Shown here: positions 16,708-64,000 of the stretch, piece after piece
Layout of the letters: each line of letters opens with the position of its first letter
Position numbering within the stretch: the first letter of the stretch is position 1
From: Candidatus Zixiibacteriota bacterium
Lineage (GTDB): Bacteria > Zixibacteria > MSB-5A5 > WJJR01
Length of the DNA stretch: 64,000 nt
Assembly: GCA_040752075.1 (NCBI GenBank)
Contig: JBFMFQ010000001.1
Location: 342 to 64,341 of the forward strand
Direction of reading: 5' to 3'
The notes under the pieces: model-generated
The model's input: only the letters and a program-made list of their open reading frames with translations
Databases searched by the model: none
What the model was told of the DNA's origin: nothing
Translations under genes and position numbers: made by a program

Positions 16708-17145
16708 ATGAGCCGTCTGATTGTCGTCATCAATGGACCGAACTTAGACCGGCTGGGAAAGCGCGAGCCGGAGGTCTACGGTCGCGACACGCTGGAGGAC
16801 ATCAACGCCCGCATCGCGGCCCACGCCAAATCGGCCGGGCTGGATGTCGAGTTTTTTCAGTCGAACCACGAAGGCGACCTGATCGATTGCATCCACGACG
16901 CCGCCGACTCCGCGCTCGGGATCATTCTGAATCCCGGCGGGCTGACCCACACATCGGTTGCACTGCGGGATGCGGTCTCCTCGGTTTCAATCCCGGTCAT
17001 TGAGGTTCACATTTCCAACATCTTCGCCCGCGAACCGTTTCGTCACCAATCCATGGTCTCCGGCGCCTGCCGCGGGGTCATCTCCGGGCTCGGGGCAACC
17101 GGGTACATTCTTGCAGTCGATTACTTGAAGATCATCTCCGGCTAG
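16708..17145 (+). CDS. aroQ: 3-dehydroquinate dehydratase, type II
   Basis: LIVVINGPNLDRLGKREPEVYG and VHISNIFAREPFRHQS motifs. AGGAG RBS 9 nt upstream of ATG 16708. Confidence 0.85.
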   Translation: MSRLIVVINGPNLDRLGKREPEVYGRDTLEDINARIAAHAKSAGLDVEFFQSNHEGDLIDCIHDAADSALGIILNPGGLTHTSVALRDAVSSVSIPVIEVHISNIFAREPFRHQSMVSGACRGVISGLGATGYILAVDYLKIISG

Positions 17146-17233
17146 CGTCTCCGATTTCCGTAGTCTCGAATCGGCCGTTTCCACAGATTGGACAACCCTC
17201 CGGAATCTCGCCGGGAATTCGGGGGGGATTGCC

Positions 17234-18613
17234 ATGTCAACCAAGACGACATCCGCCGCCGAACGGGACATCCAGACCATTCTGACGGGGCATCCCTACC
17301 GCGCCATATTGCGGCTCGCATGGCCGGCCACCCTGGCCATGCTCCTGCACACGCTCTTTTCAATCACCGATGCGATCTGGGTCGGCCGGCTCGGCGCCGT
17401 GCCGATTGCAGCGGTGATCTCGGCGACTTTTATCGTGTGGATACTCCTGTCGTTGACGTCTGTTCTGTCCACCGGGGTGGTGGCCATGGTCGCCCGGCAC
17501 ATCGGCGCGGGAGACAGGGACACGGCGCGCGAGGTGGCGGAGGAGAGCTTCCGGTTTGCCCTCATTTACGCCTTCGCCATTACCGTAACCGGTCTCCTGC
17601 TGCGACGGTACCTCTTCGCGCTGATGGACCTGGCGCCGGATGTTGCCAGACTGGGCGAGTCGTACATGCAAGTTTATTTCAGCGCCAGCGTTCTGGTGGT
17701 CTTCGTCGAGTGGGCCGGATCGGTGTTTCGCGCCTCGGGCAATACCCGGCTGCCCTTGGTTGTGACATCAACGGCCGTGGTTCTCAATATCGGGCTCGAC
17801 CCGCTGTTGATTTTTGGCTGGGGGCCGGTTCCCCGTCTTGGCGCAACCGGGGCGGCGGTGGCGACCATGATTGCCTATCTGGCTGCCTCGGTGATCTTCG
17901 TCGTCCTCCTCCGTGGTTCGAAACTGCCCTTTCCGTTGCACCTCCGTCTCATTGGACCGATCGACTGGTCACGCATCCGACGTTTGGTGACGATTGGCCT
18001 TCCCATCTCGATTTCCGGCATATCCTTCTCCGTCATCTACCTCTTTGTCAACCGGATCACGGCCCAGTTCGGGACACCGGCGGTGGCGGCGCTGGGAATC
18101 GGCAACCGCATCGAGTCGATCAATTACCTGGTTGCCTACGGTTGCGCCACCGCCGTGGCCACCCTGGTCGGCCAGAACCTCGGCGCGCGGAATCCGGATC
18201 GCGCCGCCGAACTCACGAACAAGACTGTCCTCCTGGTCTCCGCGTTCACCGGAGCCATGACCGTGGTCTTTCTCACCTTCCCTGAATCGATTATGCGGAT
18301 CTTCGTGGACGACCCGGCGGTCCTCGAAGCGGGGAAGGACTACGTGCGCATCCTCGCCCTGTCCCAGATTTTGATGGGATGGGAGATCGTGTTGGAAGGC
18401 GCCTTCTCCGGCTCCGGCGACACCATCCCGCCGATGGCCGTGTCCATTGTCGGCTCGGTCCTGAGAATCCCGCTGGCCTGGTTTCTGGCCGTGTCGCTAG
18501 GATGGGGGGTTGCGGGGGTTTGGTGGGCAATCAGCATCTCCACCCTGATTAAGGGGACCGCGGTGTACATCTGGTTTTCGCTCGGTCACTGGAAGCACCG
18601 GACCGTCCATTAG
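17234..18613 (+). CDS. MATE family efflux transporter
   Basis: 12-TM protein with the MATE N-terminus pattern (ILRLAWPATLAMLLHTLFSITDAIWVGRLG). Duplicated halves. Confidence 0.7.
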   Translation: MSTKTTSAAERDIQTILTGHPYRAILRLAWPATLAMLLHTLFSITDAIWVGRLGAVPIAAVISATFIVWILLSLTSVLSTGVVAMVARHIGAGDRDTAREVAEESFRFALIYAFAITVTGLLLRRYLFALMDLAPDVARLGESYMQVYFSASVLVVFVEWAGSVFRASGNTRLPLVVTSTAVVLNIGLDPLLIFGWGPVPRLGATGAAVATMIAYLAASVIFVVLLRGSKLPFPLHLRLIGPIDWSRIRRLVTIGLPISISGISFSVIYLFVNRITAQFGTPAVAALGIGNRIESINYLVAYGCATAVATLVGQNLGARNPDRAAELTNKTVLLVSAFTGAMTVVFLTFPESIMRIFVDDPAVLEAGKDYVRILALSQILMGWEIVLEGAFSGSGDTIPPMAVSIVGSVLRIPLAWFLAVSLGWGVAGVWWAISISTLIKGTAVYIWFSLGHWKHRTVH

Positions 18614-55176: not shown

Positions 55177-57596
<2,420 letters not shown>

Positions 57597-57691
57597 AGTG
57601 GGCACACGGCGGCTGATTTGTCGCGCTTCCTCAATCGCCGCTGTTGCCCTATATTCCTGCGGTCAGGGTGGAAGGATGGCGGGGCTGGACG

Positions 57692-58549
57692 ATGGCGACT
57701 TCTCACCAGGTAAGTGCATTCCCCATCGGGTCTCACACCGTCGGCGCGGGCCGGCTGGTGTGGATTCTGGGCCCCTGCGTGCTCGAAAGTATGGACATGG
57801 CGCTTCAGGTGGCCGATGTCCTGGCGAAGGCCGGAGAACGTCAAGGTCATCAGATCGTGTTCAAGGGCTCGTACACCAAAGCGAATCGCCTGCGTGCCGA
57901 CTCCTACACCGGCCCGGGGATCGAAGAGGGCCTGCGAATCCTCGAATCAGTTAAGCGCCAAACCGGCCTGCCCGTGACAACCGATGTGCACACCACCGCG
58001 GAAGCGGAGATGGCCGGCGCCGTCGCCGACTTGATCCAGATCCCGGCGTTTCTGTGCCGCCAAACGGATCTCGTTGTCGCGGCTGCCAATACGGGAAGGC
58101 CGGTGAACATCAAGAAGGGCCAGTTCCTGTCGCCGGCGGACATGGGGCACATCGCGGACAAAGTGGTCCGAACAGGCAACCGCAAAGTCTTGCTGACGGA
58201 GCGGGGCACAACCTACGGCTACGGCGATTTGATTGTCGATTTCCGTTCCCTGCCGATCATGCGATCCACCGGACACCCGGTCTGCTACGATGCCTCGCAC
58301 GCGGTCCAGACACCGGGTTCCGGAGGCGGGCACTCGGGGGGAAAGCGCGAGTTCCTGCTCCCGCTTTTGAGAGGCGCCCTGGCCGTGGGGGTGGATGCCA
58401 TCTTCTGCGAGATCCACCCCGATCCATCCTCGGCAAAAAGCGACGCCCAGACACAGTGGCCGCTGGCAGACGCACAGGCTCTCTTTGATTCCGCCGAGCG
58501 CGTGCTTGGCCGTACCGAAGTAAATGGAGAGGCCGCGCATGCCGGCTAA
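57692..58549 (+). CDS. kdsA: 2-dehydro-3-deoxyphosphooctonate aldolase (KDO8P synthase)
   Basis: GPCVLES, FKGSYTKANR, IPAFLCRQTDL motifs. Confidence 0.85.
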   Translation: MATSHQVSAFPIGSHTVGAGRLVWILGPCVLESMDMALQVADVLAKAGERQGHQIVFKGSYTKANRLRADSYTGPGIEEGLRILESVKRQTGLPVTTDVHTTAEAEMAGAVADLIQIPAFLCRQTDLVVAAANTGRPVNIKKGQFLSPADMGHIADKVVRTGNRKVLLTERGTTYGYGDLIVDFRSLPIMRSTGHPVCYDASHAVQTPGSGGGHSGGKREFLLPLLRGALAVGVDAIFCEIHPDPSSAKSDAQTQWPLADAQALFDSAERVLGRTEVNGEAAHAG

Positions 58550-59081
58550 ACGCCGCCCCACCAAGGCGCGTTTGGCGCGGGTACGGATGATCATCTTCGA
58601 CTTCGATGGTGTGCTGACGGACAACTACGTGTTCGTGGGTGAGAACGGTGAACGATTCAAGAGATTCTGGGTGCCCGACGGTGTTGGGATTTTCCTGGCC
58701 CACAAGGCGGGGATCAAGTTCGCGATCATCACGGGCAATCAGGACAAATCAACGCGTGTCCGGGCCGAGTACCTGCGCATTGACGATGTGTTCCAGGGCA
58801 TTCTGGACAAGGCGGAGGCGTACGACGAAGTCAAACGGCGGCACCGGTTGAGCGACGAGGAATGCCTCTATATCGGCGATGATCTCCCCGACCGTCCGGT
58901 GTTTGAGCGCGTGGGGATCGCGGTTGCGCCGTCGGACGCCAACCCGCTGATGAAACGGCTGGCCGATTGGATCGGCAGTTACCCAGGCGGACGGGGTATC
59001 GTGCGTGAGACCATCGACGCGGTCCTGGAAGCCCGCACCAATGGAACCGGAAAGCCGAAGAGTGGGAAGAGACCCAAATGA
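58539..59081 (+). CDS. kdsC: KDO 8-phosphate phosphatase (HAD family)
   Basis: IIFDFDGVLTD and YIGDDLPD motifs. Alternative start at 58524. Confidence 0.8.
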   Translation: MPAKRRPTKARLARVRMIIFDFDGVLTDNYVFVGENGERFKRFWVPDGVGIFLAHKAGIKFAIITGNQDKSTRVRAEYLRIDDVFQGILDKAEAYDEVKRRHRLSDEECLYIGDDLPDRPVFERVGIAVAPSDANPLMKRLADWIGSYPGGRGIVRETIDAVLEARTNGTGKPKSGKRPK

Positions 59082-60094
59082 CCAAATCGGCGATGTCCAA
59101 TACGTCCACCCGTTCGGCCGCCGTGGCAGAGTCCCGCCGGGTCCGCACCGGTCGTGATGTGATCCGCCTCGAGGCCGAGGCGGTGGCCACCGTGGCCGCG
59201 CGCCTGGATGATCGCTTCGACACGGCCGTGGACATCCTCTTGCGCGCCGAGGGACGCGTCATCGTGAGCGGCATGGGAAAGTCCGGGTTGATTGGACAGA
59301 AGATCGCCTCCACGTTGTCATCGACCGGCACACCCGCTGTGTTCCTGCACCCGGTCGAGGCCGGCCACGGCGACATCGGCGTGGTGGGCGCCGGCGATGT
59401 CCTTCTTGCCATCTCGAAATCGGGCAATTGCGAAGAGATCGGCGAACTCCTCCCGTTCTTCAAGCGCATGGGCACACCGATCATTCTGATCACCGGCAAC
59501 ATGAACAGCGAACTGGCCCGCCGCGCCGACATCGCCCTCGATGCCTCCGTGGAGGGCGAAGCCGAACCCAACGATTTGGTTCCGACCTGCTCGACCACCG
59601 CGGCTTTGGCCATGGGCGATGCCCTCGCCGTAACGCTGCTTTCCGAGCGCGGCTTCACGGCGGAGCAATTCGCGCGATTGCATCCCAAAGGGGCGCTGGG
59701 GAGGCGGCTCCTTCTTACGGTTGCGGACTTAATGCATGCGGGCGATGAGGTGCCGCTGGTGGCCATCGACGCGCCATTTAAGGATGTCCTCGTCGAAATG
59801 ACCCGCAAGCGATTCGGGGCCACCGGGGTGGTCGATGCAAATGGGTGCCTTATTGGGGTCTTTACGGATGGCGATCTGCGCCGTCAGGTGGAGCGTCACA
59901 TCGATCTGATGAAGGCAAGCGCCGCCGATGTGATGACCCGAAACCCCAAAACCATATCGTCCAACGAACTCGCGGTTGCGGCGGTCGCCAAGATGGAGGA
60001 CCACCGAATCACCTCGCTGTTCATTGTGGACGACAATCGCAAGCCGCTGGGGATTCTGCACCTCCATGATATCCTCCGCTCGGGAGCGGTGTAA
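59078..60094 (+). CDS. kdsD: Arabinose-5-phosphate isomerase (SIS + tandem CBS)
   Basis: VSGMGKSG SIS motif. C-terminal CBS pair. ATGA overlap with kdsC. Confidence 0.85.
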   Translation: MTKSAMSNTSTRSAAVAESRRVRTGRDVIRLEAEAVATVAARLDDRFDTAVDILLRAEGRVIVSGMGKSGLIGQKIASTLSSTGTPAVFLHPVEAGHGDIGVVGAGDVLLAISKSGNCEEIGELLPFFKRMGTPIILITGNMNSELARRADIALDASVEGEAEPNDLVPTCSTTAALAMGDALAVTLLSERGFTAEQFARLHPKGALGRRLLLTVADLMHAGDEVPLVAIDAPFKDVLVEMTRKRFGATGVVDANGCLIGVFTDGDLRRQVERHIDLMKASAADVMTRNPKTISSNELAVAAVAKMEDHRITSLFIVDDNRKPLGILHLHDILRSGAV

Positions 60095-60102
60095 GACAAA
60101 AG

Positions 60103-60681
60103 GTGGCCGTGAGGAAGAGTGCGTCTCGGCCGGTATCGTGCCGCAAATGGCTGGCCGCAATTTGCCTGCCTGCGCTCGTGGCTTCCAGCTGCACTTATGA
60201 AGAACCGACCGTGCGGCCCTCCTCCCAGACATTCCCAACCTCTGAAGCGACCAACGCCACGACTGAGTTTCTGACCGGCTCGATCGTCACGACCCGGCTG
60301 CACAGCGGACGGATCATTCAGTTCGCCGAGAGTGATTCGGCTTGGGCCTATGTGCTCCATGCCGACTTCTATGACTCGAGTGGGGTTCACACCTCCACCC
60401 TTACAGCGGACTCGGCGCTGGTCCGCGAGGGCCGGCGGCTCATGGAAGTGTTCGGTCAAGTCCATGTCCTGACCGACAAAGGGACGACCCTGGAATCATC
60501 CCACCTTGCCTGGAATGATTCGAGTCAAACTGTTTCGACGGATTCGTTTGTCGTGGTTACCCGTGGGGAGGATGTGATGTCGGGGTACGGCTTTCAATCC
60601 GACCCCGACCTCACCCGCATCATCTTTCGCCGTCAGGTGTCCGGACGAATCGCCGACCCCGAGACGCTCGAAGAAGAATAA
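60103..60681 (+). CDS. lptC: LptC-like LPS export protein (membrane-anchored periplasmic)
   Basis: N-terminal anchor (WLAAICLPALVASSC). About 190-aa beta-rich periplasmic domain. Conserved position directly after kdsC-kdsD. Weak sequence-level assignment. Confidence 0.45.
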   Translation: MAVRKSASRPVSCRKWLAAICLPALVASSCTYEEPTVRPSSQTFPTSEATNATTEFLTGSIVTTRLHSGRIIQFAESDSAWAYVLHADFYDSSGVHTSTLTADSALVREGRRLMEVFGQVHVLTDKGTTLESSHLAWNDSSQTVSTDSFVVVTRGEDVMSGYGFQSDPDLTRIIFRRQVSGRIADPETLEEE

Positions 60682-61806: not shown

Positions 61807-62102
61807 TTGGTCTCTCCTCAAATCACGGGTTTAGGGCAGGCCGCCAATCATGCCAACGCGGAAAACGGCATTCAAGCGAAATCGGCAAGGCGTTGCGATC
61901 TTCGGCCGAAGTTTGTCAGAATGGAAATCCTGAAAGCGGAAAGGCCGCACAGCGGCGCGGAGAGGGCGTCGCAACGCGATGCCGGTCAAGTCCAATCGGC
62001 CTTGGCTACGGGGGCTGGGTCCCCATGAATTGCCTCGACGGCCCGACTTGGCAAAACCGCTTCTGCGCCGGGCAACTCTTGCGCCACGCCGGCGGCTCCC
62101 GA

Positions 62103-62131
62103 TTGACTTGGCCGCATTCCCGCTTCATACT
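62103..62131 (+). promoter_or_regulatory. Candidate sigma70 promoter TTGACT-N17-CATACT upstream of the SucC-like gene
   Basis: TTGACT at 62103-62108, 17-nt spacer, CATACT at 62126-62131. Start codon about 30 nt downstream. Confidence 0.35.
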
Positions 62132-62160
62132 TGCGGGCCGTCCCGCCTCCGCGGGGTGAG

Positions 62161-63723
62161 GTGCTCGACGTGGCCAGATTACACGAATACCAGGGAAAGA
62201 AACTTCTGCGCGACGCGGGATTCAGTGTGCCCAAAGGCGCGGTGATTCGTGCCGGGGATGACATGCGGGCCGCCGTAACCGCGTCCGGTCTGCCGGCGGT
62301 CATCAAGGCCCAGGCGTGGACAACCTCGCGGGCGGCACAGGGCGCCATCGCCTTTGCCGACACGGACGCGGATGCGCAGGCGGCGATCAGCCGCATGCTG
62401 TCGCTCACTTTCGCCGGGTTCCCCGTTTCCGAGGTCCTGGTTGAAGAAAAGGTCGACATTGCGCGTGAATTCTACGCGGGTGTGGTGATTGATGATGCCA
62501 ACAAGACACCGGTCGTGATCTTCTCCTCCGTTGGGGGTTCCGGCATCGAGGATCTGGCGAAGCGATTCCCCAAGAATGTGGCCAAGACACCCGTCGATGT
62601 CCGTTTCGGTCTGCGCGAATACGAGGCCCGGGACACCGTGCGCAAAACCGGGGTCAGCGGCAGTCTCCAAGCCGAGTTGGCGAAGGCGTTGATGCGCCTC
62701 TACGGTGTCGCCCGCAAGTGGGAAGCCCGGTCCGCGGAGATCAACCCGCTGGTCCTGCGTGGCGACGGGTCCATCGTCGCCTGCGACTGCCGCATCACGG
62801 TGGACGACAATGCCGTCTTCCGTCACCCCGAACTCGGCATCGAGATCGCCCGTGAATTCGGCCGGCCTCCCTCGGAATTGGACCGCATCGCATGGATGGT
62901 CGAGAAAGATGACTACCGCGGGACTTTCTACTTCATCGAGATGGCGCGTGGCTATGCACGCGGCGAGAAGTATCTCGGATTCCACGGCGCCGGGGGCGGT
63001 GGCTCGATGATGTCGATGGATGCCTTGGTGAAGCGCGGCTACAAGATCGCCAATTTCACCGATACATCCGGTAACCCCCCCGCCTCAAAAGTCTACCGGG
63101 CGGCCAAGATCATCCTGTCGCAGCCGAACATCGACGGCTACTTCGGCTCGGGCTCCGGGGTCGCCTCACAGGAGCAGTTCCACTCCGCCCGGGGGTTGGT
63201 CAAGGCCTTCTGGGAGGAGAATCTCTCGATTCCCGCTGTGATCCGGCTGGGCGGCAACAGCGAGGACCAGGCGATTCGCATCCTGACCGAATACACGAAG
63301 AATCTCCCGGCTCCCGTCGAGGGATACAAGAAGGACGACACCGCGGATTTCTGCGCCGGGCGGATGGATGCACTCATTCAGGAGTCCAAAGACCGTGCCA
63401 GGACGCGTGCTCCGATCGTGCCCTCCTCACCGCCATTCGAGGCGAAGGAGCCGTACACCTTTGAGACGCCGACCGGGCAGGTCGTCCTCGATCATGCGCT
63501 TTGCCGCGATTGCAAGACAAAGATCTGTGTTGAAACATGTGTCCCGCAGATTCTGCGGGTCGAAAACGATGCGGTTGTCCTGAACATCTCACGGGAAGAT
63601 GCCAAGGCGGGCAAGTGCACCGAGTGCCTCGCGTGCGAGGTGGAGTGCCGGGTCGGGGGCAACGGCGGTGGACGCGTCATCCTGCCCATCGCGGGATTGG
63701 ATGAGTACAGATCCAAACCGTAA
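62161..63723 (+). CDS. Succinyl-CoA ligase beta-subunit-like ATP-grasp protein with C-terminal 2x[4Fe-4S] ferredoxin-like extension
   Basis: [10 protein letters not shown] (SucC N-terminus), EINPLVL, CoA-ligase region ([27 protein letters not shown]). Then [15 protein letters not shown] and [11 protein letters not shown] Cys clusters in the last ~90 aa. Followed by sucD. Confidence 0.7.
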
Positions 63724-63764: not shown

Positions 63765-64000
63765 ATGTCGATCCTCGTTGACGAAACCAAGAAGGTCGTG
63801 GTCCAGGGAATCACCGGACGCGAGGGCATGGCGCGCACCAAGCTGATGCAGCGCTACGGGACCCGTGTCGTGGCGGGATGCACACCGGGCAAGGGCGGGC
63901 AGGACGTGCTTGGTGTCCCGGTTTACGACACGGTCCTGGAGGCGGTCGAGGTCTGCGAGGGTCTCGATGTCTCGGTGATCTTTGTCCCCGCGCCGCTGGT
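63765..64000 (+). CDS. sucD: Succinyl-CoA ligase alpha subunit (partial, continues beyond window)
   Basis: [19 protein letters not shown]...GCTPGKGG. CoA-binding N-terminus. Confidence 0.8.

Follow-up and report, generated by a model that had tools for sequence, protein, structure and literature searches.

What reaction is served by a protein that reads like the beta subunit of succinyl-CoA synthetase (SCS) and ends in a ferredoxin-like domain, and what would such a domain do on an acid-CoA ligase? The question is raised by a gene, here called ccsA-Fd, in a stretch of 64,000 nucleotides from the Candidatus Zixiibacteriota bacterium assembly GCA_040752075.1 (contig JBFMFQ010000001.1, positions 342 to 64,341, forward strand; "the window" hereafter is this whole stretch), for which an earlier note, made from the letters alone, had proposed a SucC-type protein fused to a ferredoxin. 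Our analysis suggests, with a probability of roughly 0.55, that the product of ccsA-Fd is the large subunit of a ligase that is heteromeric and ADP-forming and resembles citryl-CoA synthetase (CCS), and that its iron-sulphur (Fe-S) module would be redox- or O2-sensing or structural, not catalytic. The fusion itself is real and conserved far beyond chance. The gene and the parts of its product are located in the window as follows:

62170 to 63723, plus strand: ccsA-Fd, encoding the large (beta-type) subunit of an acid-CoA ligase of the SCS superfamily, with a ferredoxin-like domain at its C-terminus (517 aa, GTG start)
62176 to 62859, plus strand: ATP-grasp nucleotide-binding domain, residues ~3-230 (Pfam ATP-grasp_2, E = 1.3e-43)
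62305 to 62346, plus strand: divergent T-loop inside the ATP-grasp domain (xTGR-type loop common to the whole clade)
62860 to 63369, plus strand: substrate/CoA-ligase-like domain, residues ~231-400 (family motif at 63049-63090)
63370 to 63453, plus strand: variable Pro/Lys-rich linker of ~28 residues, residues ~401-428, following the helix with Cys395 (conservation 0.33)
63454 to 63699, plus strand: ferredoxin-like domain of 2x[4Fe-4S] type, ~85 residues (~429-510), with eight Cys

Domain architecture of the ccsA-Fd product

A SucC-type body had been read from the sequence, and this holds for the ATP-grasp plus ligase architecture and for the fold: the full-length AF2 model (pLDDT 91.4, pTM 0.85) matched Thermus SCS-beta 3UFX in a Foldseek search (E = 4e-38, TMt 0.89). 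Strict SucC identity does not hold, as the curated SucC models were not passed (226.6 bits against a cut-off of 370 for NF001913, and 223.4 against 375.55 for TIGR01016) and the substrate-site motifs of SucC are absent. The Pfam scan that the earlier note had proposed gave ATP-grasp_2, no match to Ligase_CoA in the ccsA-Fd product and Fer4-type models only below threshold, while Citrate_bind reached 25.4 bits, just below its gathering score of 26.8. The divergent loop said to replace the GGRGKAGG-type block of SucC is indeed there. Among relatives that carry the same C-terminal domain (the Fd-fused family), this block reads WTT.RA..G and the GNGAGL of SucC reads HGAGGGGSM, both family-invariant, and ANFLD[IV]GGGA and NIFGGI are likewise swapped for other family-invariant motifs. 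Within the ATP-grasp domain the family never departs from K46, Q48, T52, R54, E190-I191-N192-P193 and D206; judged by such conserved residues, the ATP-grasp/phosphohistidine ligase is catalytically intact.

Conservation across 118 homologues, expressed as mean majority frequency, was highest in the substrate domain (0.85), followed by the ferredoxin-like domain (0.73), the ATP-grasp domain (0.69) and the linker (0.33). When residues 231-405 were searched alone, the best sequence match in PDB was CcsA of Hydrogenobacter thermophilus (6HXQ_B, 6.3e-15; Thermus SCS, 2.4e-12), and the motifs GGGGS and ANFTD.GNPPA.K.Y..KIILS.P are common to CcsA and the substrate domain of the Fd-fused family. Two further cysteines lie in the ligase body. 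Cys395 (63352-63354 of the window) is invariant and belongs to the helix DFCAERL immediately before the linker, and Cys207 (62788-62790), kept in at least 90%, is the residue next after Asp206, which binds Mg in the ATP-grasp site. The two are candidates for a redox-sensitive thiol pair.

The two cysteine motifs of 2x[4Fe-4S] ferredoxin type reported for the C-terminus were found as described, namely Cx2Cx4Cx3C (Cys445/448/453/457, 63502-63540) and Cx2Cx2Cx3C (Cys483/486/489/493, 63616-63648), eight Cys in all. The tail was longer than claimed: linker and domain together extend ~120-130 aa past the normal SucC end, compared with the ~90 aa given before. Every one of 118 full-length homologues, the most distant of them at 56-60% identity, keeps the whole pattern Cx2Cx4Cx3C-(25/26)-Cx2Cx2Cx3C. 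Compared with the bacterial dicluster type, motif 1 has a middle spacing of four residues, not two, and CxP, not CP. The Pfam dicluster models stayed below their gathering scores of 25.5-27 (Fer4_9 21.1, Fer4_7 20.6 and Fer4_10 16.2 bits), which is consistent with the finding that none of the homologues' precomputed Pfam listings, in either of the two homologue searches described below, contains a Fer4 domain. The AF2 model of the domain alone (pLDDT 88) takes the ferredoxin fold, and Foldseek matched it to HgcB, 2-oxoglutarate:ferredoxin oxidoreductase (OOR), HdrA and subunit D of archaeal RNA polymerase (RNAP), all at E > 0.1. With the full model against PDB, Foldseek returned no chain spanning both the ligase body and the ferredoxin-like domain. 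Motifs and predicted model together strongly suggest that the domain binds two [4Fe-4S] clusters.

Conservation and spread of the fusion

Two homologue searches were performed. The first compared the ccsA-Fd product with 5.8 billion proteins and returned thousands of relatives, of which the best 120 were inspected; the second, with an Anaerolineae member as query, returned 5870 clusters at E <= 1e-50, of which again the best 120 were inspected. Most of the best 120 in each search were 504-535 aa long with 96-100% query coverage, apart from a few truncated entries (two in the first search, whose longest entry was 607 aa). In the first search the usual range was 508-535 aa at 96-98% coverage, and in the second nearly all of the best 120 likewise had 508-535 aa; thousands of 90%-identity protein clusters belong to the Fd-fused family. 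When one genome for each GTDB species was scanned, a relative of ccsA-Fd turned up in at least 592 species genomes, which belong to about ten phyla. Among the matches listed, the C-terminal domain lay inside the match in 80 of 80 loci, and the phyla comprised Zixibacteria, 'Ignavibacteria', Gemmatimonadetes, Calditrichia, Marinimicrobia, Acidobacteriota/Aminicenantes, KSB1, Sumerlaeota and many Anaerolineae/Chloroflexota; the family has so far been seen only in uncultured lineages.

Gene context

Because the window ends inside the alpha-subunit gene, relatives were used for the downstream context. The two genes flanking ccsA-Fd in the window are those that had been noted, a sucD-like gene downstream and a divergent gene of the Iso_dh family:

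63765 to 64000, plus strand: small (alpha/SucD-like, CcsB-like) subunit, N-terminal 78 codons, running off the window; 85% identical to the orthologue on contig L001
60688 to 61806, minus strand: Iso_dh-family (isocitrate/homoisocitrate-type) dehydrogenase (Pfam Iso_dh, 5e-83)

L001, a Zixibacteria contig of 80% identity, shares its upstream gene order with the window (pyrG, kdsA, kdsC, kpsF, lptC, Iso_dh). Its gene order is ccsA-Fd, a SucD-like gene (308 aa), a citrate-synthase-like gene (259 aa), an HD-domain gene (177 aa) and an aconitase-family gene (645 aa), and the same order was found again in other phyla. The full-length alpha orthologue of L001 keeps the phosphohistidine motif FSHAGAI, and the alpha subunit stays below the SucD cut-offs (289 against 353). 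The short citrate-synthase-like protein passes the NCBIfam citryl-CoA lyase (CCL) model NF004869 (233.4, above 212). In PDB it is most similar to Ccl of H. thermophilus (6HXP, 3.7e-47, ~45% identity), and the motifs HGGA, GxGHR and NVDGA are kept. Among the 80 species loci, counting in each denominator only the loci with enough flanking sequence, the neighbours of ccsA-Fd were distributed as follows:

SucD-like gene, directly downstream: 71/72 loci
CCL-like gene, within 4 kb downstream: 61/65 loci
HD-domain protein gene: 42/58 loci
Aconitase-family gene: 30/44 loci
Iso_dh gene: 29/44 loci

As judged from these similarities, the gene set is a two-step ATP-dependent citrate cleavage system (CCS and CCL) joined to the next two steps of the tricarboxylic acid (TCA) cycle. 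The operon has no conserved oxidoreductase and encodes no redox partner, and the partnership with 2-oxoacid:ferredoxin oxidoreductase that the earlier note had put forward finds no genomic support there. The Iso_dh protein of the window passes no NCBIfam cut-off (the best model being homoisocitrate dehydrogenase AksF2, 334 against 540), and its substrate was ambiguous from the S-x-N/R85 loop, which reads YSSPIVGLRQ with a Ser113-like residue and no equivalent of Asn115 or Arg85.

The operon varies in several details. The 'aconitase' of L001 (L001:14247-16184) is a fused protein of 645 aa, replaced in other phyla by split LeuCD-like pairs, and two such pairs (L006:13801-15551 and 16776-18553) flank the Iso_dh gene in L006. 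The HD-domain protein (L001:13661-14194, with equivalents in L004, L005 and L006) has 176-177 aa, lies between the genes for CCL and the aconitase-family protein, and matches Pfam HD at 6e-5 to 1e-8 with a weak HDIG motif. In several loci an insert of ~0.9-2 kb separates ccsA-Fd from ccsB: a 329-aa DPPY-motif DNA-methyltransferase-like open reading frame (ORF) at L022:9524-10513, and a 247-aa DUF3800-like ORF at L084:9576-10319. Both of these look like selfish or defence-type insertions in the operon.

Position in the superfamily and split-gene variants

A HMMER search of 1.84 billion cluster representatives was followed by a rough neighbour-joining (NJ) tree of 80 representatives, rooted at the midpoint. 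Three groups were obtained: canonical SucC; Aquificae-type CcsA-like proteins, identified by blastp with a 6HXQ_B fragment; and a third clade, which holds the Fd-fused family, Fd-fused members of greater divergence (29-52% identity) and relatives of ~405-425 aa that lack the fusion. The Fd-fused protein is CCS-like in its substrate domain and context and, on this tree, is not a CcsA orthologue. Assignment to SucC proper was rejected (failed cut-offs, hallmark motifs replaced). Membership of AclB, the ATP-citrate lyase (ACL) subunit, was rejected as well, AclB 6HXJ_A matching at only 1.5e-20 and ACLY at 1e-3, with CCL not fused.

Two of the three non-fused relatives inspected (L088 and L089) have a separate ferredoxin-like gene between beta and alpha. 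In L088 this is a stand-alone homologue of 92 aa (L088:3239-3517) with 7 Cys, the first Cys of motif 2 being missing; it is followed by a SucD-like gene, an HpcH/CitE-like lyase and a PrpD-family gene, and cupin, DUF1847 and flavoprotein genes are also present. With this lyase, PrpD-family and other linkage, the L088 ligase probably acts on a different substrate. In L089 the homologue (L089:2299-2556) has 85 aa and all eight Cys, in the order GntR, beta, 85-aa protein, alpha. A homologue search with the 85-aa split protein, limited by its word index, returned only 2 proteins. Since non-fused relatives encode the module separately, the Fe-S module appears to be a hallmark of the ligase clade, fused or split, that reaches beyond the CCL-linked branch.

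Proposed function

In the proposed mechanism, the ATP-grasp domain would phosphorylate the SucD-like partner on a histidine. Citrate, held by the large subunit in its C-terminal half, would be activated by this phosphoryl group, and CoA would then yield citryl-CoA. The CCL encoded two genes downstream would interconvert citryl-CoA with acetyl-CoA and oxaloacetate, and together with the aconitase-family and Iso_dh-family genes a citrate/2-oxoglutarate module would result. Both citrate as the substrate and the direction of flux are what we infer; the module may perform ATP-dependent citrate cleavage or, in reverse, ATP-conserving citrate synthesis. For the cleavage, a table in PMC13147460 gives a ΔrG'm of about -8 kJ/mol, so that the pair of ligase and lyase can run either way. 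Because this pair sits where citrate synthase sits in citrate-to-2-oxoglutarate operons, ATP-conserving synthesis is as plausible as cleavage.

The C-terminal domain on its flexible linker would bind two [4Fe-4S] clusters, and we infer this binding together with a regulatory role. The clusters may tie the activity or assembly of the enzyme to anoxic, reduced conditions; that such control may prevent a futile, ATP-wasting cycle with citrate synthase is the weakest step of the proposal. The clusters are read as a regulatory or structural element because electrons play no part in the ligase chemistry and the neighbourhood holds no conserved oxidoreductase. The redox sensing that the earlier note had suggested would be a reasonable, unproven role for the Fe-S domain. 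A precedent is archaeal RNAP, whose subunit Rpo3 has a non-catalytic ferredoxin-like domain that reportedly controls assembly (PMC5300874).

Several observations weigh against this assignment. The whole beta subunit is nearer to SCS than to CcsA in the PDB sequence search (3UFX_B, 5e-59; 6HXQ_B, 3e-32), and so is the alpha subunit of L001 (archaeal SCS-alpha 2YV2, 4e-79; CcsB 6HXQ_A, 1e-46). Orthology with Aquificae CcsA was rejected, as the Fd-bearing group falls into a different clade of the rough NJ tree. In an alignment to 6HXQ_B, G-TANNT and VRRNGP of CcsA are replaced by GVASQEQ and IRLGGN in the Fd-fused family; among the citrate contacts the glycine is kept (TSG301NP), and ANNT is changed to ASQE and RR to RL relative to CcsA. 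The TANNT and VRRNGP positions of CcsA are those we take to be the ACLY citrate contacts N346, T348 and R379, and the glycine is presumably ACLY G309. As the N346, T348 and R379 positions differ, the known solution for binding citrate is not conserved, insofar as this ACLY correspondence holds. In addition, the aconitase-family protein of L001 passes the NCBIfam homoaconitase model TIGR00139 (743, above 530); because of this and of the best Iso_dh match to homoisocitrate dehydrogenase, a homologue of citrate could be the true substrate. In Cloacimonetes (L002:10001-11572 and L003) the Fd-fused gene stands alone beside a carboxyltransferase gene, with no SucD-like or CCL-like gene within 10 kb. 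Finally, the regulatory role of the clusters is argued from exclusion and analogy.

A broader reading, which we regard as possible but doubtful, extends the citryl-CoA-synthetase-like assignment to an unrecognised SCS-superfamily clade obligately provided with a ferredoxin-like subunit (fused to beta in the CCL branch, separate elsewhere) that would act as a redox-gated switch of TCA direction. The clusters would then make ATP-dependent citrate cleavage or ATP-conserving citrate synthesis responsive to the ferredoxin or O2 state of the cell. If this were true, such a TCA-direction switch would operate in anaerobic/microaerobic Zixibacteria, Calditrichia, Marinimicrobia, Anaerolineae, Acidobacteriota and KSB1.

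Alternative explanations

The ferredoxin-like domain might be a true electron carrier, either partnering pyruvate:ferredoxin oxidoreductase (PFOR) or 2-oxoglutarate:ferredoxin oxidoreductase in a metabolon of the reductive TCA (rTCA) cycle, or reducing a disulfide of the ligase (e.g. Cys207/Cys395). Its closest folds are electron-transfer modules (FixX, the delta subunits of PFOR and OOR, NfnA and FwdF/G), the flexible linker suggests a mobile domain, the ligase body has the extra conserved C207 (at least 90%) and C395 (invariant), and acetyl-CoA, the product of CCL, is a substrate of PFOR. However, no oxidoreductase is conserved in the operon, neither the ligase nor the lyase reaction has a redox step, and the host lineages are mostly regarded as heterotrophs. 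We consider an electron carrier unlikely, although it fares best of the four rivals.

Slightly less likely again is a genuine SCS beta subunit with an accessory Fe-S domain, which would handle succinyl-CoA in the TCA cycle, perhaps beside 2-oxoglutarate:ferredoxin oxidoreductase. SCS beta and alpha subunits are indeed the best full-length PDB relatives, sources name the protein succinyl-CoA synthetase beta, IRLGGN resembles the VRLEGN of SCS, and the operon context is TCA-related. Yet both curated SucC models failed by ~150 bits and the alpha subunit fails the SucD cut-offs, the SCS hallmark motifs and the GGRGKAGG loop are all replaced by family-invariant ones, and the CCL gene found in 61 of 65 genomes would be of no use to a succinate ligase. 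The related, cultured Caldithrix abyssi is annotated with SCS, citrate synthase, aconitase and isocitrate dehydrogenase, which may also speak against an SCS, should C. abyssi carry the operon and its annotated SCS be distinct from the Fd-fused family.

About equally improbable is a ligase/lyase pair acting on a homologue of citrate, most plausibly homocitrate (homocitryl-CoA being interconverted with acetyl-CoA and 2-oxoglutarate), within a 2-oxoadipate or alpha-aminoadipate-lysine module. The homoaconitase score of the L001 protein above its TIGR00139 cut-off, the best match of the window's Iso_dh protein to homoisocitrate dehydrogenase (below its cut-off), the two LeuCD-like pairs of L006 and the lack of conservation at the presumed ACLY/CcsA citrate-contact residues in the alignment all point this way. 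In C. abyssi, homologues of enzymes of the alpha-aminoadipate lysine pathway occur within 'TCA cycle' loci, which favours homocitrate, but the same species has its own homocitrate synthase in its lysine locus, which does not (PMC5317091). Against homocitrate, the CCL-like protein passes the citryl-CoA lyase model, keeps the lyase motifs and shows ~45% identity to Ccl, and the annotated flanks contained no genes of lysW/X/Z/Y type. Moreover, enzymes of LeuCD/LeuB type often act as aconitase and isocitrate dehydrogenase in anaerobes.

An artefact, that is, a frameshift or mis-assembly joining a sucC-like gene to a small ferredoxin gene (the case named in advance as refuting the fusion), has next to no probability: a single-base error could in principle create the fusion, because related systems have the module as a separate 85-92 aa ORF right after the beta gene, but thousands of assemblies, independent of one another and drawn from many phyla and sources, show the same in-frame fusion with its variable linker, an NCBI protein model with 100% identity exists (P0001, 517 aa), and the conservation of the fusion and its eight Cys across homologues (118 of 118) excludes it, the separate ORF being a natural variant of the related systems.

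Start site, intergenic region and neighbouring genes

The mechanical ORF call is 62131 to 63723 on the plus strand, and the GTG at 62170 is most likely the true start: GAGG lies 8 nt 5' of it, it aligns with the ATG of relatives in the upstream-region alignment, it gives the 517 aa of the identical NCBI model P0001, and the TTG at 62131 falls within the putative -10 hexamer. The earlier note had begun the gene at 61807, which is in fact where the neighbouring gene ends; positions 61807-62169 are intergenic, and the sequence motifs that it had quoted (ligase body, divergent loop and both Cys motifs) are all present in the ORF from 62170. The promoter that it had placed upstream also exists as a match:

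62103 to 62131, plus strand: sigma-70-like promoter match TTGACT-N17-CATACT, ~38 nt 5' of the GTG (consensus match only)

One such match was found, against 0.1 expected in shuffles, as a consensus match only. Close relatives have a better one, TTGACA-N17-GATATT, at another aligned position. All 5 aligned Zixibacteria-like intergenic regions keep the block GACAAGCGAAATCGG, which lies at ~61868-61885 of the window, between the Iso_dh gene and ccsA-Fd. Read on the minus strand, this block is a possible -35 region for the Iso_dh promoter; alternatively, it could be an operator common to the divergent genes.

Upstream, a lipopolysaccharide (LPS)/3-deoxy-D-manno-octulosonate (KDO) block (kdsB-like, pyrG, kdsA, kdsC, kpsF and lptC) occupies 55177-60681 of the window and is syntenic with L001. 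TamB, Omp85, a class-V aminotransferase (IscS/NifS-like) and MnmA are encoded further upstream. Pfam analysis of ten nearby window genes found only housekeeping functions (KDO/LPS, TamB/Omp85, IscS-like, MnmA and CTP synthase), none of which informs the function of ccsA-Fd.

Annotation and implications

The literature search found no description of an Fe-S-bearing CcsA or SucC, and the claim that this architecture is not a described one for SucC stands for the literature and databases searched. No specific database name for the Fd-fused family was seen among the homologue entries, which their sources call 'ATP-grasp domain-containing', 'acetate-CoA ligase family', 'succinyl-CoA synthetase beta' or 'hypothetical'. 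The Fd-fused architecture has apparently never been described or annotated.

Citrate cleavage by ACL or by CCS and CCL is used as a diagnostic rTCA marker in genome surveys. If citrate is the substrate of the ccsA-Fd ligase, a route that cleaves citrate, or forms it with a yield of ATP, is missing from the metabolic reconstructions of many uncultured phyla, and it is likely that such a route is mis-annotated in many phyla. From the mechanism of an acid-thiol ligase an Fe-S module would not be expected; at a central metabolic branch point it would mean either a new example of control by Fe-S clusters or a step that depends on electrons and has gone unrecognised. To judge by the split-gene variants with other lyases, the module may be general to a ligase clade of several substrates.

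Comparison with known systems

The nearest known systems are CCS/CCL of H. thermophilus, SCS and ACL, none of which has an Fe-S domain. The H. thermophilus system (CcsA/CcsB and Ccl; 6HXQ and 6HXP), reportedly described by Aoshima et al. in 2004, consists, as here, of a two-subunit SCS-type ligase and a separate citrate-synthase-like lyase of ~258 aa. Its CcsA has 429 aa, lacks an Fe-S domain, is ~27% identical to the Fd-fused protein and belongs to a different clade. Unlike in the H. thermophilus system, the genes of the Fd-fused system stand in one operon with HD-domain, aconitase-family and Iso_dh-family genes, and, compared with Aquificae CCS, the family occurs in non-Aquificae, mostly uncultured phyla.

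SucC/SucD (Thermus aquaticus 3UFX, Escherichia coli 2SCU) share the fold (TMt 0.85-0.89), the ATP-grasp catalytic residues and a phosphohistidine alpha subunit, and have the highest full-length similarity to the Fd-fused protein, which differs from SucC in its extra ~130 residues with eight Cys and in its linkage to CCL. ATP-citrate lyase (AclAB/ACLY) is of the same superfamily and would catalyse the same net reaction as the Fd-fused ligase coupled to CCL; the likeness extends to weak Pfam matches to Citrate_bind and Citrate_synth_N and to the 'SG.P' of the citrate loop, which resembles YSGAP in ACLY. In contrast to ATP-citrate lyase, which lacks an Fe-S domain, CCL is here a separate gene of 258-259 aa and is not fused to the ~300-aa alpha subunit.

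For the Fe-S module, subunit D (Rpo3) of archaeal RNAP, which is among the Foldseek matches, likewise carries a ferredoxin-like domain on a non-redox enzyme, with only the Cys motifs in common. PurF of Bacillus subtilis and endonuclease III similarly have a cluster on an enzyme whose chemistry needs no electrons, and such clusters control assembly, stability or O2-dependent turnover. FixX and the delta subunits of PFOR and OOR, in contrast, shuttle electrons inside oxidoreductase complexes, whereas the partner of the ferredoxin-like domain in ccsA-Fd is a ligase.

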